Shown piece by piece: positions 1-42,533 of a stretch of DNA of 64,000 nucleotides. The notes under the pieces are model-generated. The model searched no databases, was not told the DNA's origin, and was given only the letters and a program-made list of their open reading frames with translations. Position 1 is the first letter of the stretch. Every line of letters starts with the position of its first letter. This DNA comes from Escherichia coli (GTDB taxonomy: Bacteria; Pseudomonadota; Gammaproteobacteria; Enterobacterales; Enterobacteriaceae). The translations under genes were made by a program, and so were the position numbers. The DNA lies in NCBI RefSeq assembly GCF_013315695.1, contig NZ_CP054353.1. One strand, given 5' to 3'.

Positions 1-2205
1 GCGCAAAAGCGCGGCCTGAAAGTCGGCAAGCAGCTGACTTTCGCCACCATGACATTTGCAGGCGACACACCGCAGCTGGCGAACGTCAAAGCGGTGGATG
101 ATATCTACCCGATGTATGGCGATCTGCAAACCAATCCCCCAGGCCTGAAACCGCAGGCGGGCAGCGTATTGCTGGCCCCACGCCTGATGGCACTGCTTAA
201 CCTGAAAACGGGCGACACCATTGACGTGGGCGATGCCACCTTGCGGATTGCCGGAGAAGTGATTCAGGAACCGGATTCCGGTTTTAACCCCTTCCAGATG
301 GCTCCGCGTCTGATGATGAATCTGGCGGATGTCGATAAAACCGGAGCCGTGCAGCCGGGGAGTCGGGTCACCTGGCGTTATAAATTCGGCGGCAACGAGA
401 ACCAGCTCGACGGCTATGAGAAATGGTTGTTACCCCAGCTTAAACCCGAACAACGCTGGTACGGTCTGGAACAGGACGAAGGCGCGCTGGGGCGATCGAT
501 AGAACGTTCGCAACAGTTCCTGCTGCTTTCGGCGCTTCTGACCTTGCTGCTGGCGGTGGCGGCGGTCGCGGTGGCGATGAATCATTACTGTCGCAGTCGC
601 TACGATCTGATGGCGATCCTCAAAACGCTGGGAGCAGGGCGAGCGCAATTGCGTAAGTTAATCGTCGGTCAGTGGTTGATGGTGCTGGTACTTTCAGCCG
701 TTACCGGCGGGGCTATAGGTCTGTTGTTCGAAAACGTGTTGATGATGCTGCTCAAACCCGTGCTACCTGCCGCTTTACCTCCTGCCAGCCTCTGGCCGTG
801 GCTGTGGGCGCTCGGCACCATGACAGTCATCTCGCTGCTGGTGGGGCTGCGACCATACCGCCTGTTGTTGGCAACGCAGCCTTTACGCGTGTTACGTAAT
901 GATGTGGTTGCAAACGTCTGGCCGCTGAAGTTTTATCTGCCGATTGTCAGTGTGGTGGTTGTGTTACTGCTCGCCGGACTGATGGGCGGCAGTATGCTGC
1001 TCTGGGCGGTGCTGGCGGGCGCGGTAGTACTGGCTTTGCTGTGCGGTGTCCTGGGCTGGATGCTGCTGAATGTACTTCGCCGCATGACGCTGAAATCGCT
1101 GCCTCTGCGCCTGGCGGTTAGCCGCCTGTTACGTCAGCCGTGGTCAACGTTAAGCCAGCTTTCGGCATTTTCGCTCTCCTTTATGCTGCTGGCACTGCTG
1201 CTGGTGTTGCATGGCGATCTGCTCGACCGCTGGCAGCAGCAGCTACCGCCAGAAAGCCCGAACTACTTTTTAATTAACATCGCCACAGAACAGGTAGCAC
1301 CGCTAAAAGCGTTCCTCGCGGAACATCAGATAGTCCCGGAATCGTTTTATCCGGTGGTGCGGGCGAGACTGACGGCGATTAACGGCAAGCCGACAGAAGG
1401 CAATGAAGATGAGGCGCTCAATCGCGAACTCAATCTTACCTGGCAAAATACGCGGCCCGATCATAATCCGATTGTCGCCGGTAACTGGCCGCCAAAAGCC
1501 GATGAAGTGTCGATGGAAGAGGGGCTGGCGAAACGCTTAAACGTTGCCCTCGGTGATACCGTGACTTTTATGGGCGATACCCAGGAGTTCCGCGCTAAAG
1601 TGACCAGCCTGCGCAAAGTGGACTGGGAAAGTCTGCGGCCTAATTTCTATTTTATTTTCCCTGAAGGGGCATTAGACGGGCAACCGCAGAGCTGGCTTAC
1701 CAGTTTCCGCTGGGAGAATGGCAACGGCATGTTGACGCAACTCAACCGCCAGTTCCCTACCATTAGCCTGTTAGACATTGGCGCGATTTTAAAACAGGTC
1801 GGTCAGGTGCTGGAGCAGGTAAGTCGGGCGCTGGAAGTGATGGTAGTGCTGGTCACTGCCTGCGGTATGTTGCTGTTGCTGGCACAGGTGCAGGTGGGAA
1901 TGCGTCAGCGTCATCAGGAGCTGGTGGTGTGGCGCACACTCGGTGCGGGCAAAAAACTGCTGCGCACGACATTGTGGTGTGAGTTCGCCATGCTCGGGTT
2001 TGTTTCTGGCCTGGTGGCCGCAATTGGTGCGGAAACGGCACTGGCAGTGTTGCAGGCGAAAGTGTTTGATTTCCCGTGGGAGCCAGACTGGCGATTGTGG
2101 ATTGTGCTGCCGTGCAGCGGTGCACTGCTGCTGTCGCTTTGCGGCGGCTGGCTGGGTGCGCGACTGGTTAAGGGTAAGGCGCTGTTCAGGCAGTTTGTGG
2201 GGTGA
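1..2205 (+). CDS. ybbP: FtsX-like ABC transporter permease, N-terminus outside window
   Basis: Reading frame is open from base 1 (listed ORF 49..2205); multiple hydrophobic TM segments; gene-order context upstream of selU. Confidence 0.75.
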   Translation, partial: AQKRGLKVGKQLTFATMTFAGDTPQLANVKAVDDIYPMYGDLQTNPPGLKPQAGSVLLAPRLMALLNLKTGDTIDVGDATLRIAGEVIQEPDSGFNPFQMAPRLMMNLADVDKTGAVQPGSRVTWRYKFGGNENQLDGYEKWLLPQLKPEQRWYGLEQDEGALGRSIERSQQFLLLSALLTLLLAVAAVAVAMNHYCRSRYDLMAILKTLGAGRAQLRKLIVGQWLMVLVLSAVTGGAIGLLFENVLMMLLKPVLPAALPPASLWPWLWALGTMTVISLLVGLRPYRLLLATQPLRVLRNDVVANVWPLKFYLPIVSVVVVLLLAGLMGGSMLLWAVLAGAVVLALLCGVLGWMLLNVLRRMTLKSLPLRLAVSRLLRQPWSTLSQLSAFSLSFMLLALLLVLHGDLLDRWQQQLPPESPNYFLINIATEQVAPLKAFLAEHQIVPESFYPVVRARLTAINGKPTEGNEDEALNRELNLTWQNTRPDHNPIVAGNWPPKADEVSMEEGLAKRLNVALGDTVTFMGDTQEFRAKVTSLRKVDWESLRPNFYFIFPEGALDGQPQSWLTSFRWENGNGMLTQLNRQFPTISLLDIGAILKQVGQVLEQVSRALEVMVVLVTACGMLLLLAQVQVGMRQRHQELVVWRTLGAGKKLLRTTLWCEFAMLGFVSGLVAAIGAETALAVLQAKVFDFPWEPDWRLWIVLPCSGALLLSLCGGWLGARLVKGKALFRQFVG

Positions 2206-2212
2206 TGACAGT

Positions 2213-2440
2213 CGTTAGATTGCCTGATGCGCTACGCTTATCAGGCCTACGAGGATCGTGCAATATATTGATTTTGCAAGATTGTGTAGGCCGGATAAGG
2301 CGTTTACGCCGCATCTGGCAGTTGTGCGCCGATGCCAGATGCGACGCAGGCGCGTCTTATCATGCCTACGAAACAGCACTCACCTGTAGGCTGGATAAGG
2401 CGTTCACGCCGCATCCGGCATGAACAGCGTGCACAGAATC
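2213..2440. repeat. REP/BIME-like palindromic repeat cluster
   Basis: Repeated GCCGGATAAGGCGTT(T/C)ACGCCGCATC(C/T)GGCA and GATGCG..CTTATCAGGCCTAC motifs in the intergenic region. Confidence 0.7.
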
Positions 2441-2445
2441 CCCCA

Positions 2446-3555
<1,110 letters not shown>

Positions 3556-3608
3556 TCAAATCAGCTTGCGCGCTATTTTACGCGCCAACGCGCAAGGAAA
3601 CTTGATTT

Positions 3609-4535
3609 TTAACTGCGTGGGTTGCCGAAAATTTCTAAAAATCCGCTGATTTCCGGCCTGCGTTGGGTAAACAAGGTCACAATATCTTCTACCGCTTTGC
3701 CGCTGCCAAATTTGCGCCATGCCAGACTCAATGGCGAAGGAGGGCGCATCGTTGGGATTACCCGGCTGACCAGTTGTTGATTATCGATCATTGACTGGCA
3801 AAGTGATTTTGGCAAAAAACCAATGCCAACGCCCGCCAGATGGGCGGCGATTTTCGTTTCCATATCAGGAACAATAATCTCTTTTTGCCCTGGCAATCGC
3901 CAGGCGACGCGTTTGGTTAAGGTGCGGGCGCTGTCTTCAATATTGACCGCCGGAAAGCGCCGCAACTGCGCTTCTGTTAGCGGCTCTTCAACGTTCGCCA
4001 GCGGATGATCCGCCGCCATGACAAAGCGCCATTGCACCGATCCTAAGGGATCAAGACTAAAGGTATTTGCCAGCGCCTCGGTTCCCGTGACGCCGATAGC
4101 CAGTGAAAAACCTTCGTATAATAGCGAATCCCAGACGCCCATATAGATTTGTCGGGAGATGTGAAACTGGGTAAAGGGGTAACGTTCATTCAGCCACGCC
4201 AGCAGTTGGGCGACGGCCTGGGGGTTATAGAGCAGGTTGTTGATGACAATATTTACCTGGCGTTCCACGCCATCATTCACCTGTTGCAGCTCGCTGGGCA
4301 TACTTTCCAGCCAGCTCAGCCAGTCTCTGGCCTGGGAAAGTAGATGCTCGCCAGCCGCTGTCAACGTCACGCTGCGAGTCGTGCGGAAAAAGAGCGCTAC
4401 TCCGGTATTCTCTTCCAGAAGTTTAATGCGATAACTGATCGTCGCCGTGGTTTTACATAATCGTTCTGCCGCTTTTGAAAAACTTCCTGTTTCAGCAACC
4501 GCAATGAAAGTCCGCAAGGTTTCTGGATCGAACAT
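3609..4535 (-). CDS. allS: LysR-family transcriptional activator of allantoin genes
   Basis: 308 aa; N-terminal LysR HTH; divergent from allA. Confidence 0.8.
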
Positions 4536-4642
4536 CTTCAGGTATCCCCTTTTAAATCCGCAAGTTGCGTGATTTTCTTATCCTCTGATTTATCAGTATT
4601 TTTACATGATAACCCTGTTCAATTTGTGGACTAAATCTAGTT

Positions 4643-4659
4643 TTGGAAAAATATTCCAA
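4643..4659. promoter_or_regulatory. 17-bp palindrome TTGGAAAAATATTCCAA, candidate AllR operator in the allS-allA intergenic region
   Basis: Perfect inverted repeat TTGGAA..TTCCAA; the same motif recurs upstream of gcl. Confidence 0.5.
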
Positions 4660-4764
4660 CTTTTGTATTGATGTTGTTCTCTTAAGGTTTTAGATTGCCT
4701 GTTATTGAAACCAAGCTGACCGGTCGGCGGTGGTTGAACGGAATTATGTTACAAGGACAAAAAG

Positions 4765-5247
4765 ATGAAACTTCAGGTATTACCGTTAAGTCAGGAAGCC
4801 TTTAGTGCTTATGGCGACGTAATCGAAACGCAGCAACGGGATTTTTTCCATATTAACAATGGCCTGGTGGAGCGTTACCACGATTTGGCGCTGGTTGAGA
4901 TTCTTGAGCAAGACCGTACGCTTATCAGCATTAACCGCGCGCAACCGGCGAATCTGCCGCTGACCATTCACGAACTCGAACGTCATCCGCTGGGCACTCA
5001 GGCCTTTATCCCGATGAAAGGTGAAGTGTTTGTGGTGGTCGTGGCGTTAGGTGACGACAAACCAGACTTGTCAACTCTGCGGGCGTTTATTACCAACGGC
5101 GAACAGGGGGTGAATTACCATCGTAACGTCTGGCATCATCCACTTTTCGCCTGGCAGCGCGTCACCGATTTCTTGACCATCGATCGCGGCGGCAGTGACA
5201 ACTGTGATGTTGAAAGTATTCCTGAACAGGAACTCTGTTTTGCGTGA
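4765..5247 (+). CDS. allA: ureidoglycolate lyase
   Basis: 160 aa ORF; context. Confidence 0.8.
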
Positions 5248-5324
5248 CGCCTGCAACCGACTTGCATAAGATAAACGAATTGTTCATTGTTTATGCTCAT
5301 TTGTAGGTCGGAGTTAACGTAGGT

Positions 5325-6140
5325 ATGACGGAAGTTAGACGGCGCGGCAGGCCAGGACAGGCGGAGCCTGTGGCACAGAAGGGCGCACAGGCGTTAGAGC
5401 GGGGAATTGCGATTCTGCAATATCTGGAAAAAAGTGGGGGAAGTTCGTCGGTTAGCGATATTTCTCTCAATCTGGATTTGCCGCTCTCCACGACCTTTCG
5501 CTTGCTGAAGGTTTTACAGGCAGCGGATTTTGTCTATCAGGACAGTCAGTTAGGCTGGTGGCATATAGGATTAGGTGTCTTTAACGTCGGTGCGGCGTAC
5601 ATCCATAACCGCGATGTCCTCTCCGTCGCCGGGCCGTTTATGCGCCGCCTGATGTTACTTTCCGGCGAAACGGTCAATGTCGCGATCCGTAACGGCAATG
5701 AAGCGGTATTAATTGGTCAGTTAGAGTGTAAATCGATGGTCAGGATGTGTGCGCCGCTGGGCAGTCGTCTGCCGCTGCATGCTTCCGGTGCGGGCAAGGC
5801 GCTGCTTTATCCGCTGGCGGAAGAGGAGTTGATGAGCATCATTCTGCAAACCGGTTTGCAGCAGTTTACGCCAACGACGCTTGTGGATATGCCCACCTTG
5901 CTGAAGGACCTGGAACAAGCGCGTGAACTGGGCTATACCGTAGATAAAGAAGAGCATGTTGTCGGCCTGAATTGCATAGCTTCAGCAATTTACGATGATG
6001 TAGGTAGTGTTGTTGCCGCTATCTCCATCTCCGGGCCTTCATCAAGACTGACAGAAGATCGTTTTGTCAGTCAGGGTGAGCTGGTCAGAGACACCGCCCG
6101 CGATATCAGCACGGCGTTGGGACTGAAAGCACATCCATAG
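5325..6140 (+). CDS. allR: IclR-family repressor of allantoin/glyoxylate genes
   Basis: 271 aa; IclR-type HTH plus effector domain; context. Confidence 0.8.
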
Positions 6141-11462: not shown

Positions 11463-12824
11463 ATGTCTTTTGATTTAATTATTAAAAACGGCACCGTTAT
11501 TTTAGAAAACGAAGCTCGCGTAGTGGATGTCGCCGTTAAAGGCGGAAAAATTGCTGCTATCGGTCAGGATCTGGGCGATGCAAAAGAAGTTATGGATGCG
11601 TCTGGTCTGGTGGTTTCGCCAGGCATGGTTGATGCGCACACCCATATTTCTGAACCGGGTCGCAGCCACTGGGAAGGTTATGAAACCGGTACTCGCGCAG
11701 CAGCAAAAGGTGGTATCACCACCATGATCGAAATGCCGCTCAACCAGCTGCCTGCAACGGTTGACCGCGCATCGATTGAACTGAAGTTTGATGCCGCTAA
11801 AGGCAAGCTGACTATCGATGCGGCGCAACTCGGTGGCCTGGTGTCTTACAACATCGACCGTCTGCATGAGCTGGATGAAGTGGGCGTTGTCGGCTTCAAA
11901 TGCTTCGTTGCGACCTGTGGCGATCGCGGTATCGACAACGACTTCCGTGACGTCAATGACTGGCAGTTCTTCAAAGGTGCGCAGAAGCTGGGCGAACTGG
12001 GACAGCCGGTGTTGGTGCACTGCGAAAACGCGCTGATCTGTGACGAACTTGGCGAAGAAGCGAAACGTGAAGGTCGCGTAACCGCACATGACTATGTGGC
12101 TTCGCGTCCGGTATTTACCGAAGTGGAAGCGATTCGCCGCGTGCTGTACCTGGCGAAAGTTGCTGGTTGCCGTCTGCACGTTTGTCATATCAGCAGCCCG
12201 GAAGGTGTTGAGGAAGTGACTCGTGCACGTCAGGAAGGTCAGGACGTTACCTGTGAATCCTGCCCGCATTACTTTGTGCTGGATACCGACCAGTTTGAAG
12301 AAATCGGTACACTGGCGAAGTGTTCACCGCCGATCCGCGATCTGGAAAACCAGAAAGGCATGTGGGAAAAACTGTTTAACGGTGAAATCGACTGCCTGGT
12401 TTCCGACCACTCTCCATGCCCGCCGGAAATGAAAGCCGGTAACATTATGAAAGCATGGGGCGGTATCGCCGGTCTGCAAAGCTGCATGGACGTGATGTTC
12501 GATGAAGCGGTACAGAAACGCGGTATGTCTCTGCCGATGTTCGGCAAATTAATGGCGACTAACGCAGCAGATATTTTCGGTCTGCAGCAAAAAGGCCGTA
12601 TCGCCCCAGGAAAAGATGCCGACTTCGTCTTCATTCAGCCGAATAGCAGCTATGTTCTTACCAATGACGATCTGGAATATCGCCACAAAGTCAGCCCGTA
12701 TGTTGGCCGTACCATTGGCGCGCGTGTCACGAAAACTATCTTACGTGGTGATGTGATTTACGACATTGAACAGGGCTTCCCTGTTGCGCCGAAAGGTCAA
12801 TTTATCCTTAAACATCAGCAGTAA
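11463..12824 (+). CDS. allB: allantoinase (cyclic amidohydrolase)
   Basis: 453 aa from [10 protein letters not shown]; metal-binding DAHTH motif. Confidence 0.85.
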
Positions 12825-20609: not shown

Positions 20610-20825
20610 GCACCAGGCAATTGGCACATCTAGCCTGATGCGATGCTGGCGCGTCTTATCAGGTCTACAGGCGGTGTCGGAACGGTAGGCCGGATAAGGC
20701 GTTCACGCCGCATCCGGCAATCGGCACACCATGCCTGATGCGATGCTGGCGCATCTTATCAGGCCTACAGTCGGTGTTGGAACGGTAGGCCTGATAAGGC
20801 GTTCACGCCGCATGCGGCAAGAAAA
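20610..20825. repeat. two tandem REP/BIME units of about 100 bp
   Basis: Near-identical units, each with GCCTGATGCGATGCTGGCGC and GGATAAGGCGTTCACGCCGCATCCGGCA. Confidence 0.75.
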
Positions 20826-33796: not shown

Positions 33797-34037
33797 AGTT
33801 ACCAGTCTCATTGGATCGGACAATTTTCCGTTAGGGCGGGAAATTGTACTTGATACATGAAAATACGGGTTTTCTTGATTCAGACGCGCAGCGGTGTGCG
33901 TTTGTTTGCCGCTATAACGAAATAAATCAGAAAATCAGACGCGGTCGTTCACTTGTTCAGCAACCAGATCAAAAGCCATTGACTCAGCAAGGGTTGACCG
34001 TATAATTCACGCGATTACACCGCATTGCGGTATCAAC

Positions 34038-34114
34038 GCGCCCTTAGCTCAGTTGGATAGAGCAACGACCTTCTAAGTCGTGGGCCGCAGGTTCGAATCC
34101 TGCAGGGCGCGCCA
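34038..34114 (+). tRNA. argU: tRNA-Arg (anticodon TCT in CTTCTAAG loop)
   Basis: GCGCCCTTAGCTCAGTTGGATAGAGC…GGTTCGAATCC…GCGCGCCA cloverleaf elements; integrase immediately downstream. Confidence 0.9.
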
Positions 34115-34129
34115 TTACAATTCAATCAG

Positions 34130-35293
34130 TTACGCCTTCTTTATATCCTCCATAATTCCACAGTGGGACATATTTGGGACATTATCACCAAAAATGTCGT
34201 CTATTTTCCTTGCATGCTCTGTCAAATGATTAGGCGCAAGGTGAGCATACCTACGAACCATTTCTATGGACTCCCATCCGCCCATTTCCTGAAGCACAGA
34301 TAATGGGACGCCTGACTGGATCAGCCAGCTTGCCCAGGTGTGTCTGAGGTCATGGAAACGGAAATCTTCAATTCCTGCACGACGACAAGCTGATAGCCAT
34401 GATGTCTTGCTGTCGATGCGCATCTTCCTGACCGCAGGCGTTGATGTTCCATCTGCTCGCTTAGTCGCCTTGGTATGTACAAACACCCATTTGTGATGCT
34501 TGCCTATTTGATCACGCAACACTTTACAGGCGGTATCGTTCAGCGCCACACCAATGGCGCGGTTTGATTTGCTCTCTTCTGGATTCACCCAGGCAACTCG
34601 TCGCTGCATGTCGATTTGTTGCCATTCCAGATTTATGATGTTCGACTTTCTCAGACCAGTTGCCAGCGCAAACTTGACGACAGATTTCAGTGGTTCGGGG
34701 CACTCATCAATAAGGCGTTTTGCTTCCTCCTTTTCCAGCCATCTGACTCGCTTGTTTCTGACCGCTGGTATCTTGATGACAGGCGCTTTTTCCAGCCACT
34801 TCCAGTCGCGTTCTGCAGCACGGAGAATGGCCTTTATCATGGCAAGATGCTTTGCCTTTGTCTGAGTTGATACTGGCTTTGGTTCATAAACAGGCGGTTC
34901 TTTACCTTTCCTGATGGCGGCCTGAACTTTCTGTTTCCATATTTCTTTCGTCTTTCTGTTATGCATTCTGCTTACAGCAGAGTAAATCTTTGCCTCCGAG
35001 ATATCTTTAAGCCTTATACCCTCAAAATGTTCAAGCCAGAACTCAATCCGGCTTTTATCTGAATCGAGAGATTTTTTATCAGCTTTTTCCTCAAGCCATC
35101 TTAGGCAGGCCTCTTCAAAAGTGACATCAGGTAAATCCCCTAGCTTTTCTACTCGCCAGAGTTCTGCTTTTCGCTTGTCGTGCAACTCCTGAGCTTGCCG
35201 CTTGTCCTTTGTGCCAAGAGATTCCTTAATTCGTTTCCCGCCCGGGAGCGAATACGAGGCATACCATATTTCATTTCTGCGGAAGAGTGACAT
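34130..35293 (-). CDS. intD: prophage tyrosine integrase (DLP12-type, argU-specific)
   Basis: 387 aa; C-terminal R..HxxR..Y catalytic region ([10 protein letters not shown]… ; …RRYAHL). Confidence 0.88.
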
Positions 35294-35523
35294 TTTCTTT
35301 CCTCTGTTATGCCATCACCCGCGCTCACCTGGACAGTATGCAGCGGAGACTGAAGCGCCGCAATGCAAGCTTGCCGTGTTGTGAGGTAAGGAGATTTTGG
35401 CTTGGTTGGATCTTTACGTGTTGCCTGTAGGCGGCCTGTTCGTATCCAGTTGGTGGCGGTTGGTCTGGATATCTTAAGAAACTGACAGGCCTCATCGAGT
35501 GTGAGGCTGTATGGCTCCATTAT
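35149..35523 (-). CDS. AlpA/Xis-like excisionase/DNA-binding protein (overlaps int 5' end; start uncertain)
   Basis: [34 protein letters not shown] typical of AlpA-family excisionases. Confidence 0.55.
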
Positions 35524-35825
35524 TTCACCTCTTGCTGTGTCATTGTTGAAAAATGGATACCAGCTCGTTGCTGCCAGACGATCCAACCGAGAGTCATATC
35601 CCATGCCATGTATTCGTTATCGCCGTTTTTTACTCTCCGACGATCTACTAAGTCACCGAAACGCTTTTCCATGAATAATTCATAGGCTTCGCGTTCATCT
35701 GGCTCTACTTCCAGAGATACGAGTGCGATTTCATAAGCACGGCGCTCAATATCGTCTCGAACCTCTAGGCTGCTGATTCGTTCTTTGATTTCTTTAATCA
35801 GTTCTTTATTGGTAAATGTGGTCAT
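35520..35825 (-). CDS. hypothetical prophage early-left protein (101 aa)
   Basis: Translationally coupled (overlapping start/stop) in the int-xis operon. Confidence 0.45.
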   Translation of the reverse strand: MTTFTNKELIKEIKERISSLEVRDDIERRAYEIALVSLEVEPDEREAYELFMEKRFGDLVDRRRVKNGDNEYMAWDMTLGWIVWQQRAGIHFSTMTQQEVK

Positions 35826-36187
35826 TATGCTCCAGCCTCCGGTGCTTTTGGCATTACTGCCCAGTGAGTGATATTGACGTTTTCAAGGTCCCCGACCTGA
35901 AATGTCCACTGCCATTCTCCGGTTTCTTTTTGTCCCCAGGTGTACCAGAGAGAACGCCAGCCAATCAGCCAGCCTTCTCCATTAGCATCAAATAACAGAA
36001 CACTTTCATTTGCTGGTGGCAGTTCAGCTGACACTGGTATTATTTTGTTTTCCAGTGCCGCACATTTAGCTTCAAGCGCGTCGAATTTACGTAACAGGTA
36101 CTCAGCATTTGTTTCATTCACTTTCAGATCTCGCGGTACACATTTCCCGCGAAGAAACCCTTCCATTTCGAAAACATTCATGCGCAT
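35825..36187 (-). CDS. DUF551-like prophage protein (120 aa)
   Basis: Trp-rich C-terminus ending …THWAVMPKAPE; coupled to neighbours. Confidence 0.45.
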   Translation of the reverse strand: MRMNVFEMEGFLRGKCVPRDLKVNETNAEYLLRKFDALEAKCAALENKIIPVSAELPPANESVLLFDANGEGWLIGWRSLWYTWGQKETGEWQWTFQVGDLENVNITHWAVMPKAPEAGA

Positions 36188-36741
36188 TTGCGTAACTCCG
36201 ATAAATCGTTAAAACGTTCCATAAACATCCCGTAGGCATGACCCGGTGCCAGTGGAATCACGTTGAACATCTCTGTTGCCGGGATGCCTTCCAGTACAGG
36301 CCAGAAAGAGCCATCATCAAGCCCGAGATCGCGGCGTTCGGTTGCCAGCATGATGAGATCGGCATATTTCACGGGTGTACTCATAACTGGGGGTAACCCG
36401 TATTTCTCACGGATTACGGCGTCTATTTTTTCTTCCATCCGTTTATAGTCAGGAAGAAGGCGTTTCAGTGGTGCGGGAATGTCCTGGCAATACGCTTCTG
36501 TTGCATCATGCATTAACGCTTCAAAAGCAAATTCCTGCGGCACCAGCTGGCTGCAAAGAACCGCATGTTGGGCGACGCTGTAGAAGTGCGAAAGATGACC
36601 GGCAAAGCGACAGATATTTGAAAGGGAAACCGCGATATCGTTAATATCGATGTCGTCTTTATTTATCTTGTCATAATAAAAATGCTTCCCGGAAAAAGTT
36701 TTAATAAATGACATTTTGTTCTCCACGTATATGCACTGCAC
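36178..36741 (-). CDS. HD-domain phosphohydrolase (YfbR-like 5'-nucleotidase family)
   Basis: H…HD metal-binding signature (…SVAQHAVL… ; …ALMHDATEAY…). Confidence 0.6.
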   Translation of the reverse strand: MQCIYVENKMSFIKTFSGKHFYYDKINKDDIDINDIAVSLSNICRFAGHLSHFYSVAQHAVLCSQLVPQEFAFEALMHDATEAYCQDIPAPLKRLLPDYKRMEEKIDAVIREKYGLPPVMSTPVKYADLIMLATERRDLGLDDGSFWPVLEGIPATEMFNVIPLAPGHAYGMFMERFNDLSELRKCA

Positions 36742-36839
36742 CGCGCTGAATTCTGGTAAAAGGAAGCCCTCACCATCCGGTGATTATTGAGTTAATTACG
36801 TTTCCATAAATGCCCCCGCAGGGGCATTTGCAGTAATGA

Positions 36840-37041
36840 AATCAGGCGGTGAAAGTACCAATAAAGGTTTCTACTTTGCTGTCTTTGAATTTCTCAACAA
36901 GCAGATCACGAAATTCGTTAGCCATTTCTTCCTGCACCGCTTCCAGCTGAATAATGCGCAGAACCAGTACAGGACGATCGCCAGTGATAATGCTGAGGCG
37001 TAATTTAAACGGACGTTCTTTCAGACCTTCAAACGGAACGC
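36840..37041 (-). pseudogene. 3' fragment of a prophage early gene, truncated by IS1
   Basis: Minus-strand frame open from the IS1 boundary to a stop at 36840 (…[39 protein letters not shown]); no start codon. Confidence 0.45.
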
Positions 37042-37096
37042 GGTGATGCTGCCAACTTACTGATTTAGTGTATGATGGTGTTTTTGAGGTGCTCCA

Positions 37097-37372
37097 GTGG
37101 CTTCTGTTTCTATCAGCTGTCCCTCCTGTTCAGCTACTGACGGGGTGGTGCGTAACGGCAAAAGCACCGCCGGACATCAGCGCTATCTCTGCTCTCACTG
37201 CCGTAAAACATGGCAACTGCAGTTCACTTACACCGCTTCTCAACCCGGTACGCACCAGAAAATCATTGATATGGCCATGAATGGCGTTGGATGCCGGGCA
37301 ACAGCCCGCATTATGGGCGTTGGCCTCAACACGATTTTACGTCACTTAAAAAACTCAGGCCGCAGTCGGTAA
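37097..37372 (+). CDS. insA: IS1 InsA
   Basis: Identical to 15374..15649. Confidence 0.9.
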
Positions 37373-37794
37373 CCTCGCGCATACAGCCGGGCAGTGACGT
37401 CATCGTCTGCGCGGAAATGGACGAACAGTGGGGCTATGTCGGGGCTAAATCGCGCCAGCGCTGGCTGTTTTACGCGTATGACAGGCTCCGGAAGACGGTT
37501 GTTGCGCACGTATTCGGTGAACGCACTATGGCGACGCTGGGGCGTCTTATGAGCCTGCTGTCACCCTTTGACGTGGTGATATGGATGACGGATGGCTGGC
37601 CGCTGTATGAATCCCGCCTGAAGGGAAAGCTGCACGTAATCAGCAAGCGATATACGCAGCGAATTGAGCGGCATAACCTGAATCTGAGGCAGCACCTGGC
37701 ACGGCTGGGACGGAAGTCGCTGTCGTTCTCAAAATCGGTGGAGCTGCATGACAAAGTCATCGGGCATTATCTGAACATAAAACACTATCAATAA
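37291..37794 (+). CDS. insB: IS1 InsB
   Basis: Identical to 15568..16071. Confidence 0.85.
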
Positions 37795-37850
37795 GTTGGA
37801 GTCATTACCTTCTAATTGATATGCAATTGTTTACTAAAAGTTATTAAAAA

Positions 37851-37868
37851 TGGGGCGTGGAAACGCCC
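37851..37868 (-). terminator. hairpin GGGGCGTGGAAACGCCCC with flanking A/T runs, likely the porin terminator
   Basis: Perfect 7-bp GC stem; on the minus strand it is followed by a T-run. Confidence 0.4.
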
Positions 37869-38007
37869 CCAAAATAAAGGGTAATATATAACAGAAGGTT
37901 TATATAGTAAGAAGCAAGGTAGTGCTTCTAAAGGAAGTGGCTTGAGGGCTCCACTTATATGTTGCGGAGGCAAAGCCTCCCGCAACATATCTTTTTCGTA
38001 AGTCAGA

Positions 38008-39090
38008 TTAGAACTGATAAACCAGACCTACAGCGACGATGTCGTCGGTATCAATACCAGCTGTTTTGGTAAACTTACTATCGTCAATTAAGTTGATTTT
38101 GTAATCAACAAAAGTGGACATGTTTTTATTAAAGTAGTAAGTAGCACCGACATCGACATACTTGACTAAGTCTCGGTCACCATGAACACCAAGGTCTTTA
38201 CCTTTTGACTGAAGGTAAGCAACAGATGGACGCAGACCGAAGTCAAACTGATATTGTGCTACTGCTTCAAAGTTTTGTGCTTTGTTTGCAATATGGTTAT
38301 TACCAAAAACGGTCATATTCTGAGTTTCAGAATATGTGGTAGCCAGATAGATATTGTTCGCATCATATTTCAGGCCTGCAGCCCATACTTCCGCATTTTT
38401 GCCGGAGGCATTGAATTTGCTCTTACCATAGGCGACCTGACCGTCAGTGCGATCTGATTTAGCATAGGTTGCACCCACGCCGAATCCTTCATACTCATAA
38501 GTAGTGGAGAAACCGAAACCATCACCATTGGCTTCAGTTACGTCAGTGCGGTCATTTTTACCCTGATACTGAGCAGCAAAGTTCAGGCCATCGACCAGAC
38601 CAAAGAAGTCGTTGTTACGATAAGTTGCAACACCAGTAGTGCGACCAGTCATGAACACATCTGTTTGGGTCCAGGTATCACCACCGAATTCTGGCAGGAC
38701 GTCAGTCCACGCACCGATGTCGTATGCTACACCGTAGTTACGGCCGTAATCGATTGAGCCGTAATCACCAAATTTCAGGCCTGCAAATGCAAGACGGGTT
38801 TTGTCTTTGGAAGAACCTTGAGATTCAGCACGGTTGCCTTTGAATTCATATTCCCACTGACCGAAACCAGTCAGTTGATCGTTGATTTGGGTTTCACCTT
38901 TGAAGCCAAGACGGGCATAAGTAGTATCACCATCATCTGCATCATTAGAGGAGAAGTAGTGCTTGGCATTAACTTTCCCGTATAGATCCAGCTTGTTACT
39001 GTCTTTATTATAAATTTCAGCTGCCTGAGCAGACATCGCCATCAGTACTGATGCAGCTACAGCAGAAATTGCCACTGTTAATTTTTTCAT
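38008..39090 (-). CDS. nmpC: prophage-encoded OmpC/OmpF-family porin, apparently intact
   Basis: 360 aa from [23 protein letters not shown] signal peptide; C-terminal …VAVGLVYQF beta-barrel signature. Confidence 0.85.
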
Positions 39091-39516
39091 TGTACGCCCT
39101 TTTTTTGAACTATTATTAAAAAATGATGTCACTGCGCGATAAATATTCATCTAATCAATGCGATTATTTCAAGATGTAAGTTTTAGTTTCTCATTTAATT
39201 TGTGAAGTAGATCTCTATTTTTATCTAAACCTTTTCTATCTAATCCTATTCATGGCTCTTGTTTGAACGAAAATAAATCTATTAGCTAATTTATATTAAT
39301 GGCACTTATTTATAAGCGATCTATAATTCTTTAGCTTAATTTAAACAAGCTAAAAATAACATCGGAAATTATTCATTGGTTATTTGTTGAAGTTTTCTTA
39401 TGTATTTGTGGTGGTGTTTTGAACACTCGGTGGCATTCTCACAAATATCATTTAGTAGTTTACGTACGTAAAAAATTGGTTATGCTGTTAAGAGTGGTTA
39501 CTTCGTCACACAGCTT

Positions 39517-39549
39517 AAACCCGCCGTCGAGCGGGTTTTTCCATTTTTT
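39517..39549 (+). terminator. rho-independent terminator upstream of the holin (tR'-like)
   Basis: AAACCCGC-CGTCGA-GCGGGTTTTTCCATTTTTT; stem-loop plus U tract. Confidence 0.5.
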
Positions 39550-39678
39550 GAGTCTCGATATTAGCTGATAACCCAATACCTGAGTTATTCACTGACTCCG
39601 AATCTGTTACGTTTCTGCCTTTATTGCGATACGTAGTATCCCCTTAATTTACACCCGCTTTGTCTGCGAGGTGGGGTT

Positions 39679-39894
39679 ATGAAATCCATGGATAAGTTAA
39701 CAACGGGTGTCGCCTATGGCACCTCAGCAGGTAGTGCCGGATACTGGTTTTTACAGCTGCTAGATAAAGTCACGCCCTCACAGTGGGCGGCAATTGGAGT
39801 GCTGGGTAGCCTGGTATTTGGCCTGCTGACGTACCTGACAAACCTTTATTTCAAGATTAAAGAAGATAAGCGCAAGGCTGCGAGAGGTGGATAA
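39679..39894 (+). CDS. essD: class II holin (phage-21 S21-like pinholin)
   Basis: 71 aa, two TM segments ([26 protein letters not shown]…), charged C-terminus. Confidence 0.85.
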
Positions 39895-40391
39895 TGCCTC
39901 CATCATTACGAAAAGCTGTTGCTGCTGCTATTGGTGGCGGGGCTATTGCTATAGCATCTGTGTTAATCACTGGCCCAAGTGGTAACGATGGTCTGGAAGG
40001 TGTGAGACATAATCCTTACAAAGACATAGTTGGTGTATGGACTGTATGTTACGGGCATACAGGAAAAGACATCATTCCCGGTAAAACGTATACCGAAGCA
40101 GAGTGCAAAGCCCTCCTGAATAAAGACCTTGCCACTGTCGCCAGACAAATTAACCCGTACATCAAAGTCGATATACCGGAAACAACGCGCGGCGCTCTTT
40201 ACTCGTTCGTCTACAACGTGGGTGCTGGCAATTTCAGAACATCGACGCTTCTTCGCAAAATCAACCAGGGCGATATCAAAGGCGCATGTGACCAGCTACG
40301 TCGCTGGACATACGCTGGCGGTAAGCAATGGAAAGGGCTGATGACTCGCCGTGAGATTGAGCGTGAAGTCTGTTTGTGGGGGCAGCAATGA
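39894..40391 (+). CDS. rrrD: SAR endolysin (T4 lysozyme-type muramidase with N-terminal signal-anchor-release domain)
   Basis: 165 aa; Gly/Ala-rich SAR segment [20 protein letters not shown] followed by lysozyme fold. Confidence 0.85.
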
Positions 40392-40825
40392 GCAGGTTAA
40401 CCGCGATTATCTCCGCTCTGGTTATCTGCATCATCGTCTGTCTGTCATGGGCTGTTAATCATTACCGTGATAACGCCATTACCTATAAAGAACAGCGCGA
40501 TAAAGCCACGTACATCATCGCTGACATGCAGAAGCGTCAACGTGACGTAGCAGAACTCGATGCCAGATATACAAAGGAGCTTGCTGATGCTAACGCGACT
40601 ATCGAAAGTCTCCGTGCTGATGTTTCTGCTGGGCGTAAGCGCCTGCAAGTCGCCGCCACCTGTGCAAAGTCAACGACCGGAGCCAGCGGCATGGGCGATG
40701 GAGAAAGCCCAGGACTTACAGCAGATGCTGAACTCAATTATTACCGTCTCCGAAGTGGAATCGACAAGATAACCGCGCAGGTTAACTACCTGCAGGAATA
40801 CATCAGGACGCAATGCCTGAAATAA
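40376..40825 (+). CDS. rzpD: Rz-like i-spanin
   Basis: 149 aa; N-terminal TM then coiled coil; overlaps endolysin end. Confidence 0.8.
40560..40772 (+). CDS. rzoD: Rz1-like o-spanin lipoprotein embedded in the +1 frame of Rz
   Basis: Lipobox LLGVSAC followed by Pro-rich segment; fully nested in rzpD; true start probably an internal Met. Confidence 0.7.
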
Positions 40826-40886
40826 TTTTTTTGCAAATCACAAAGTCAATTTAATGAGCCTCGCGATGCGGGGCTTTTTGCAATAA

Positions 40887-40911
40887 ATGCGTACCGCAAC
40901 GCATGTTTTTT
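40887..40911 (+). terminator. weak terminator-like hairpin after the spanin genes
   Basis: ATGCGT-ACCGCA-ACGCAT followed by GTTTTTT. Confidence 0.3.
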
Positions 40912-41026
40912 ACACCGAACCTGCCCCTTTGGAATGGGCCTTTGAGGATACCAGTTAGTGCTGGCGAGCCTCGGTGGGCTGGTTTCCTGTGCGGCAAAGG
41001 TTCATTTCAAAGAGTAGGTACACGCT

Positions 41027-41778: not shown

Positions 41779-42263
41779 CCATTACAAAGCCTATCTACGG
41801 GTGGGCTTGATAATGGCTTATACCCTACACGGGATAACTTAACTGATATCCCTTTTAAAGGATAAAGGTATTCAAGCCTGACACATCATGCGCTGTATCG
41901 TCGCCGTGTTCCCGTATTAACAGAGACCGTAGCCCGACGGGGAACTCCTTCTGCGCGAGTGTGCGGGAATAATCAAAAACGATGCACACCGGGGTTACCG
42001 GGTACACATATTTCATCATGCCAGCGAGTCCGGTTCTGGCACGGAAGAAACCGGACGTTATGATTTAGTGCGGAAATATTTGTGTAGTGTTCTGAATGTT
42101 CTCAGTAAAGAGTAATGAATTATCAAAGGTATAGTAATACCTTTTGTTTTCGTGGATATTTGTAATCCATCTGAAAACCCCTGCTGTAGCAAGATTTTTC
42201 CTGTATTCGTAAAATGATAACTCTCCTGATTTGAATCCTTTTAAGGTGGCTTCTATAAGGCAT

Positions 42264-42476
42264 TTATTTTTTTGAAAATCTTACATTTACAACCTTACCC
42301 TGTCCTTTTATTAAAACCGTATTATCGTTTTCAAGAACAAGATGAATATTCTCTGTGGCTAAATAGTAAATGTAATGTGAGACATTGTGACGTTTTAGTT
42401 CAGAATAAAACCAGTGATAGTTTAAATTATTTCGCACTTTATCGAATATTTGTTTAAAAATGGCAACCTGAGCCAT
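42264..42476 (-). CDS. hypothetical small protein (about 70 aa) in an AT-rich island
   Basis: Likely start at the second Met (MAQVAIF…) preceded by GGAAGG; GC content well below surroundings. Confidence 0.4.
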
Positions 42477-42533
42477 TGTAGTACCTTCCATGTGATATGA
42501 GGGGGCGTAGTCTGCACGATTATCTAGATTGCT

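Follow-up and report, generated by a model that had tools for sequence, protein, structure and literature searches.

Our results identify positions 39459-39549 of the DNA analysed here (a stretch of 64,000 nucleotides, referred to as the window), with a probability that we put at about 85%, as the late-gene control cassette of a DLP12-type prophage that is integrated at argU and has lost its own Q gene through an IS1-associated deletion. The cassette would consist of a weak sigma-70 promoter, a dyad that covers the -35 element and the upstream half of the spacer, and a terminator whose end lies about 50 nt downstream of the transcription start. QuuD, the antiterminator of intact relatives and a member of the Q21 family, is encoded 1.7 kb upstream, on the far side of a porin gene in reverse orientation. 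By analogy to phage 21, we infer that QuuD binds the cassette while RNA polymerase pauses just after the start and then accompanies the enzyme past the hairpin and into the genes for holin, endolysin, spanin and morphogenesis. The deletion of 906 bp has taken codons 1-125 of quuD while leaving the cis-acting cassette and the late operon untouched. Without a matching Q, most transcripts should end as an RNA of about 50 nt. Expression of the late genes would then depend on leakage or on a Q of the same specificity class provided in trans. The element itself is the already-known late control region of DLP12/PA-2-type phages; the part that is specific to this strain is the loss of Q, which amounts to ordinary prophage decay. 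What is currently understood about Q antitermination is unaffected by these results.

The chromosome of E. coli MSB1_4I (NZ_LR898874.1) contains this region with 100% identity. The first 34 kb of the window represent ordinary chromosomal DNA, followed by a prophage at the tRNA-Arg(tct) gene argU (34038-34114), the attachment site of DLP12. The annotated gene order of this prophage begins with intD, yfdT, a gene for a phage protein, yfdR, a 201-bp remnant of a DUF2303 gene and IS1, and continues with the porin gene (minus strand), the essD holin gene, the rrrD endolysin gene and an Rz-like gene (Table 1). In its right part, lambda-like genes for packaging, head and tail form a complete set, which extends past the end of the window. 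The lysis and morphogenesis genes (holin, endolysin, Rz, terminase, portal, capsid and tail) all lie on the plus strand, 3' of the control unit, and none of the structural genes carries a pseudogene flag in the RefSeq annotation; the late operon is annotated as intact. A frameshift is annotated in a DUF1398 gene on the minus strand (~42066-42477), located between the lysis cassette and the terminase genes, which is the sole pseudogene flag in the part of the prophage covered by the window besides the small HTH and DUF2303 remnants to the left of IS1. Within the allantoin gene cluster of the chromosomal part, allE and glxK are separated by a second IS1 copy (~11650-12347), whose transposase has the same protein accession. 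The chromosomal part also contains REP-type repeat RNAs that score above the Rfam gathering threshold (naRNA4 twice and ES036, at 2243-2366 and 20688-20765).

Table 1. Positions of the late control region and its surroundings in the window.
Feature	Position	Strand	Remarks
IS1, 768 bp	37042..37809	+	takes the place of 906 bp, which include quuD in related prophages
quuD remnant	37810..37818	+	last two codons and stop (TCT AAT TGA), by alignment with 434B/DLP12 and KSC9
Q-porin spacer	37819..38007	.	almost identical to the spacer following quuD in 434B/DLP12
Porin gene, nmpC/lc type, annotated as ompC	38008..39090	-	moron in reverse orientation; in this phage lineage, it separates Q from the late promoter
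AT-rich region upstream of the porin gene	39091..39442	.	GC ~25%
Palindrome TTTACGTACGTAAA, candidate Q-binding element	39459..39472	+	perfect, 14 bp; centre at -27.5; its first six bases are the -35-like TTTACG
Predicted -35 hexamer of pR' (TTTACG)	39459..39464	+
Predicted -10 hexamer of pR' (TATGCT)	39481..39486	+
Predicted start and almost invariant 24-nt leader AGAGTGGTTACTTCGTCACACAGC	39493..39516	+	sigma-dependent pause element expected within
Intrinsic terminator tR'	39517..39549	+	stem 39517-39538 (+25..+46), U-rich tail to 39549
Holin leader	39550..39678	+	~73% identical to the corresponding leader of SfII-type phages
Lysis cassette	39679..40826	+	first genes of the apparently intact late operon, by annotation
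essD, S21-type dual-start holin	39679..39894	+
rrrD, endolysin	39894..40391	+
Rz-like gene	40389..40826	+

An earlier note on this DNA had described an AT-rich interval of 530 bp (39150-39678) between the porin and holin genes. The composition of this interval is as claimed, with a GC content of 0.245-0.30 over 39100-39499 (calculated for 200-nt windows) compared to 0.38-0.545 elsewhere in 37800-40999, and its border on the holin side is correct. On the porin side, the border needs to be shifted, because the coding sequence starts at 39090, as supported by its signal peptide and the RefSeq CDS, and not at the upstream ATG at 39150. The true intergenic gap therefore comprises positions 39091-39678 (588 bp). 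The terminator that the note had placed upstream of the holin was also recovered, as a hairpin and U tract on the plus strand that end 130 bp before the holin ATG (39679). Its stem contains 8 bp, including 5 G-C pairs, and is closed by a 6-nt loop and followed by TTCCATTTTTT up to position 39549. A scan of the holin leader revealed no further terminator-like or promoter-like site. An Rfam scan of the gap returned nothing at the gathering score, and relaxing it to an E-value threshold yielded only terminator-driven noise (Trp leader at 20 bits, Hrs10 at 21 bits and isrK at 11.8 bits, the last against a gathering score of 50).

The decisive evidence on the nature of this region came from a sensitive search with the holin-proximal 250 nt as a query. 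About 280 records of Stx phages match positions 39456-39540 with 78-89% identity, exactly at the end of their Q genes, and in the annotations of VT2-Sakai and SC370 the matching sequence is labelled 'putative late promoter', 'putative Q-utilization' and 'possible rho-independent terminator'. The similarity to the late promoter, putative qut site and first hairpin of VT2-Sakai amounts to 78% identity over 85 nt, with the sequence TTTACG-16 bp-TATGCT aligning base for base with the annotated late promoter. Both sequences share the -35 hexamer TTTACG and the 16-bp spacing, whereas the -10 hexamer reads TATGCT in the window and TATCAT in VT2-Sakai, followed by GTTAAGAGTGGTTAC and GATAAGAGTGGTTAC, respectively. 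The hairpin arms are AAACCCGC...GCGGGTTT in the window and AACCCGC...GCGGGTT in VT2-Sakai. With 8 of 12 consensus matches, the hexamers of the window are weak, and they were not called by a consensus scan. For phage Sakai, Sy et al. have mapped the start of the pR' transcript by dRNA-seq and the 3' end of the terminated RNA by Term-seq, with a distance of 258 nt between them (PMC7547250). Counting back from the second annotated terminator, the Sakai start corresponds to an A residue 7 nt after the annotated -10 element. Transcription in the window is predicted to start at the equivalent base, near A39493 (±2), in which case the terminated RNA should have a length of about 49-53 nt. A search for a pause element in the DLP12-type leader yielded no clear TAnnnT motif, only the imperfect -10-like hexamers AAGAGT and TACTTC; the Sakai leader has TACATT at +7..+12. 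The 1986 record of phage PA-2 (J02580) annotates the equivalent of 39493-39513, and thus the invariant leader from +1 to +21, as one of two 'CRP binding sites' (1730-1750). This block is equally conserved in phages that lack a porin gene and is, therefore, more likely to be part of the late unit or the Q-loading region than to serve the porin gene as a CRP site.

We also considered other positions for the promoter. A pR' in the ~190-bp gap between Q and the porin gene, as found in lambda and 933W, can be rejected. The window retains this gap (37819-38007), but apart from hairpins nothing resembling a promoter was detected in it, and the sequence homologous to the Stx pR' is located beyond the porin gene, on its holin side. 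It is improbable, although better placed than the remaining alternatives, that the lysis genes are instead driven from elsewhere in the porin-holin gap, for instance by a sigma-E-type promoter near 39108-39139, with the sequence at 39459-39486 being inactive and the hairpin at 39517 serving as an insulator or attenuator in a long leader. The literature on the K-12 lysis cassette reports control by both sigma-E and Q. The construct described in PMC7918800, which cites Rueggeberg 2015, spans '-121 to +650' of the regulatory region, and its forward primer maps to 39018-39037, which would put the K-12 '+1' near 39139, about 355 nt upstream of the start we predict at A39493; the reverse primer has no match in the window strain or in 434B. 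This position is preceded by a GAACT..TCACT motif, and the consensus scan detected a promoter-like site at 39299-39327. However, Stx, SfII and mEp390-type phages lack the entire segment 39091-39455 and have kept only the unit from about -40 onward, and the mapped start of the homologous unit lies 7 nt after its -10 element. Moreover, an upstream promoter would be compatible with a late control unit at 39459-39549, because upstream transcripts would still face the terminator at 39517.

The assignment of the unit to late control is further supported by its association with a specific group of Q proteins. The cognate Q is of the QuuD/Q933W type and belongs to the Q21 family (PF06530), so that the Q proteins of lambda and phage 82 are members of the wrong families, and the Q protein of phage 21 itself is only a distant relative of QuuD with a different binding element. 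QuuD matches PF06530 end to end (E = 4e-53), shares 78% identity with Q933W and 42% with the Q-like protein of SfII, and it matches the Q21 structures 6jnx and 6p18 (E = 8e-7); an NCBIfam scan of QuuD returned no family. Membership in the Q82 family could be dismissed on the basis of these structural matches and the published assignment of PF06530 to Q21, PF03589 to lambda Q and PF06323 to Q82 (PMC9388147). In the DLP12 qsr' segment carried by 434B, a Q gene of 127 codons precedes a spacer of 190 bp, at the far end of which the porin gene begins with its 3' end. The same arrangement, comprising Q, the 190-bp spacer, the reverse-oriented porin gene, the unit and the holin gene, is found in all 74 of the 80 QuuD-encoding IMG/VR loci that extend far enough. 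Across these loci, the unit is 98-100% identical to that of the window, which itself is 100% identical to units in QuuD-carrying loci, whereas the porin gene shows only 85-99% identity. A search with the invariant leader as a pattern revealed 120 further loci with 81 distinct units. In total, 104 of 128 unit-bearing sequences contain a PF06530 Q gene upstream on the same strand, at a distance of either -1 to 76 bp or 0.5 to 3 kb (full range -1 to 3027 bp), with the larger gaps being filled by reverse-oriented genes; most of the sequences without Q include less than 2.3 kb of upstream DNA. The window clearly stands apart, as it contains 39 kb of upstream sequence and no Q gene, and its unit is thus an orphan. 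Since the porin gene normally separates Q from the promoter in this lineage, the unit never adjoined Q. Collectively, the homology to the Stx pR' region, the identical units in QuuD loci and the upstream PF06530 Q genes support the pR'/qut/tR' interpretation, which had originally been based on geometry.

The lack of a Q gene in the window, already pointed out in the earlier note, was confirmed by tblastn searches with seven PF06530 Q proteins, which found nothing, and by the RefSeq annotation, which lists no antiterminator in the window. The proposal that IS1 occupies the place of Q proved to be exact, because the nine bases that follow the element represent the end of quuD. IS1 starts with GGTGATGCTGCCAACTTACTGAT and ends with AATAAGTTGGAGTCATTACC, possesses terminal inverted repeats and an insA/insB frameshift transposase gene and is annotated as a member of the IS1A family. 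Its flanking 9-mers (acggaacgc and ttctaattg) differ, so that a target-site duplication is absent. The comparison with the corresponding locus of strain KSC9 shows that window positions 34000-37041 are equivalent to positions 2001-5042 of that locus (99.8% identity), after which the window resumes at position 5949; 906 bp including quuD codons 1-125 have thus been removed. The unduplicated flanks and the replacement of 906 bp together indicate an IS1-associated deletion rather than a simple insertion. The IS1 junction is common to only two complete genomes, MSB1_4I and NZ_OZ547117.1, and the same argU prophage, already reduced but with an intact quuD gene, is present in 21 complete genomes, including KSC9. 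Its gene order (intD ... yfdR, DUF2303 fragment, DUF968 fragment, quuD, porin, essD) identifies the window prophage as the KSC9-type reduced form minus a further 906 bp. In this widespread form, seen in KSC9 (4843-5957) and 20 other complete genomes, the DUF2303 fragment is joined to the DUF968 fragment directly 5' of the intact quuD gene; the genes for immunity and replication that belong between the early genes and Q are gone, and Q, the porin gene and the lysis genes are kept. The retained spacer between Q and the porin gene forms three successive hairpins, among them a G+C-rich one (GGGGCG..CGCCCC) flanked by A and T runs on both sides and a long one (ATATGTTGCGGAGGC..GCCTCCCGCAACATAT), behind which the plus strand reads CTTTTT. 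These hairpins probably terminate the porin transcript and the Q transcript.

The loss of Q had led the earlier note to conclude that the late operon is terminated constitutively unless Q is supplied in trans. An early stop in the absence of Q is indeed to be expected, but the word 'constitutively' is probably too strong, given that the homologous hairpin of Sakai, despite its longer U run, is passed often enough to produce an abundant 258-nt RNA. Because the Stx hairpin is read through and the window has no second terminator, silencing may be leaky and the hairpin of the window perhaps only a partial terminator. The Sakai read-through and the K-12 reports, together with a recurrent variant of the DLP12-type terminator, make a low level of Q-independent lysis-gene expression plausible. 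This variant carries GCTGG in place of GCGGG in the 3' arm, at the equivalent of position 39533 (loci L010, L048, L068, L080, L081, L083, L084 and L096), which disrupts a pair at the centre of the G-C stem and is expected to make termination weaker.

In Stx phages, the short terminated RNA from pR' functions as an Hfq-binding sRNA (PMC7547250), and it is conceivable that the unit of the window has been kept because its ~50-nt transcript is a regulatory sRNA comparable to StxS or Gifsy-1 IsrK, with late control being secondary. The fact that the unit has not decayed despite the loss of Q, being 100% identical to units in Q-bearing loci, would fit this notion. We nevertheless regard it as very unlikely, since the functional 74-nt StxS sequence is located in the 3' part of the 258-nt RNA, which is missing from the window, where the similarity to VT2-Sakai ends just after the first hairpin. 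In addition, no Rfam match rises above noise, with isrK remaining at 11.8 bits, and the restriction of the IS1 junction to two complete genomes indicates that the loss of Q may be too recent for visible decay.

Comparative data on the hairpin are in line with a terminator as part of a late control unit. A perfect stem followed by a T run is present in 71 of the 82 distinct homologous units, compared to 10.8% of shuffled sequences, and it starts at +24..+36 in 68 of them. The stems themselves can be unrelated in sequence, as in AAAACCTCGC/GCGGGGTTTT, AAACCCTGTCA/TGACGGGGTTT and AAATCCCGCCT/AGGTGGGATTT. Thus, pairing and position are kept while the stem sequence changes, as predicted for a terminator. 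RNAalifold did not recover the terminator from an alignment of 65 sequences, since inserted sequence shifts some of the units out of register; its only output, an invariant stem of 5 bp at +3..+18, is uninformative. In the window, the hairpin has a minimum free energy of -12 kcal/mol, a value that is reached by 5 of 200 shuffled sequences. The z-score for the 60-nt predicted transcript is only -1.4, and single terminator-like sites are not rare, with seven of them in 3 kb compared to 3.0 expected; yet the conservation of position and pairing in 71 of 82 homologues and of the unit as a whole (98-100%, next to a porin gene with 85-99%) effectively refutes the idea that the hairpin is a functionless G+C-rich inverted repeat that arose by chance in an AT-rich spacer. 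In several other clades (e.g. loci L097, L104 and L117), the first hairpin is followed, at +55 to +170, by a conserved module of about 110 nt (…GCAGTACAGTAAACACGCTGGTGG…CTTGCTGGCTTTTT) that ends in a second terminator and may represent another short late-promoter RNA analogous to StxS. This module is absent from the window.

The 14-bp palindrome overlapping the -35 element occurs at a single site in the window. Every clade of the unit has a palindrome with its centre at -27.5/-28, and its sequence tracks the clade of the linked Q protein (alignment columns 7-20 and loci L087-L210). The palindrome of the window is paired with QuuD in 28 of 28 cases, while units linked to Q933W carry TTTACGATCGTAAA, those of the SfII/EH1992 type GCGTACGC and those of the mEp390 type GCGGTCCGC; P27-like Q goes together with TGTTATAACA or GGAATTCC, and APSE-like Q with TTCGTTACGAA. 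The 24-nt leader, by contrast, is nearly invariant across all clades. The combination of a clade-variable palindrome with an invariant leader is the pattern expected of a specificity site, and the dyad at -27.5 is therefore probably the Q-binding element, with the caveat that Q and the unit are physically linked, so that linkage alone could give rise to the same association. Extending this idea, it is tempting to speculate that palindromes of 8-14 bp constitute the QBE of the QuuD/Q933W branch and that their classes define which Q switches which late operon, an idea to which we would give roughly even odds. If true, members of this branch would bind DNA symmetrically, unlike phage 21, whose QBE is made up of two direct repeats, and the sequence of the palindrome would predict the trans-activation of an orphan or Stx late operon by a resident or incoming phage. 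This clade-specific palindrome is the only mildly new aspect of the control unit.

Among the known systems, the closest relative is DLP12 (qsr') of K-12, which is also carried by 434B and related to PA-2 with its lc porin. It shows the same order quuD - nmpC - essD/rrrD/rzpD and has likewise an S21-type holin with a dual start. The copy in 434B has a unit that is 100% identical to that of the window over 95 nt and an almost identical spacer between Q and the porin gene. The late operon of DLP12 is truncated in K-12, whereas it is complete in the window. The porin gene of the window is also intact, while nmpC carries IS5 in both K-12 and 434B; conversely, the window has lost quuD to IS1. The DLP12 Q protein has been reported to control the K-12 lysis cassette, as cited in PMC7918800. 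The Stx phages (933W, VT2-Sakai/Sp5 and Sp15) possess a homologous promoter, leader and first hairpin, a Q protein with 78% identity and the same -35/-10 spacing and position of the palindrome. However, their promoter overlaps the 3' end of Q, whereas that of the window does not adjoin Q, the centre of their palindrome is AT instead of TA, and their terminated RNA of 258 nt extends to a second terminator and contains StxS, neither of which the window has.

Phage 21 belongs to the same PF06530 family and displays a similar layout, with a site in the promoter, an early pause element and a terminator ending near +50, followed by S21-type lysis genes. Its curated record lists the QBE at -27..-12, the pause element at +2..+8 and the terminator at +3..+50, which indicates that a terminator with its end at ~50 nt is normal for the Q21 family. 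Its Q protein of 162 amino acids is only distantly similar to QuuD, its QBE contains two direct repeats instead of the palindrome at -34..-21, tRNA genes take the place of the long leader before S, and the control regions share no DNA similarity. The terminated RNA of lambda has a length of 194 nt. The pR'-qut-tR' unit of lambda, which gives rise to this 6S RNA, follows the same logic of a constitutive promoter, early termination and Q-dependent read-through to S, R, Rz and the morphogenesis genes, but lambda Q belongs to an unrelated family, PF03589 (PMC9388147).

To look for another source of Q in the chromosome of MSB1_4I, we compared the match places of a unique 556-nt tag with and without the quuD sequence appended. 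The tag alone matched two places in both sensitive and megablast mode, whereas the tag plus quuD matched three places in sensitive mode and two in megablast mode. The difference (3 versus 2 in the sensitive mode and 2 versus 2 with megablast) points to one further quuD-related gene with less than about 85% DNA identity to quuD. Given the association of palindromes with Q clades, the product of this gene may not recognise the orphan unit, and the operon may thus stay silent until a phage with a QuuD-class Q arrives. NZ_OZ547117.1, the second genome with the IS1 junction, appears to carry an additional close copy of quuD.

For annotation, it is useful to note that the late promoter of DLP12/PA-2-type prophages sits between the porin and holin genes and not beside Q. 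Our findings also illustrate that a prophage can retain a complete and undecayed late operon together with its cis-acting switch after the trans-acting factor has been lost. Such an orphan operon forms a reservoir of lysis and virion genes, which a related phage with a Q of the same specificity class could switch on or rescue by recombination. If confirmed, the link between palindromes and Q clades would provide a sequence rule for cross-activation between lambdoid prophages, including Stx phages. A second, independent disruption of the Q gene by an insertion sequence is found in another DLP12-type prophage (locus L100, positions 1-309, IMG/VR contig 2617270973_000006), in which the end of an element that we take to be IS2 abuts quuD at about codon 107, such that only the last 60 nt of the gene remain, followed in the normal order by the spacer, the porin gene, the unit and the holin gene.
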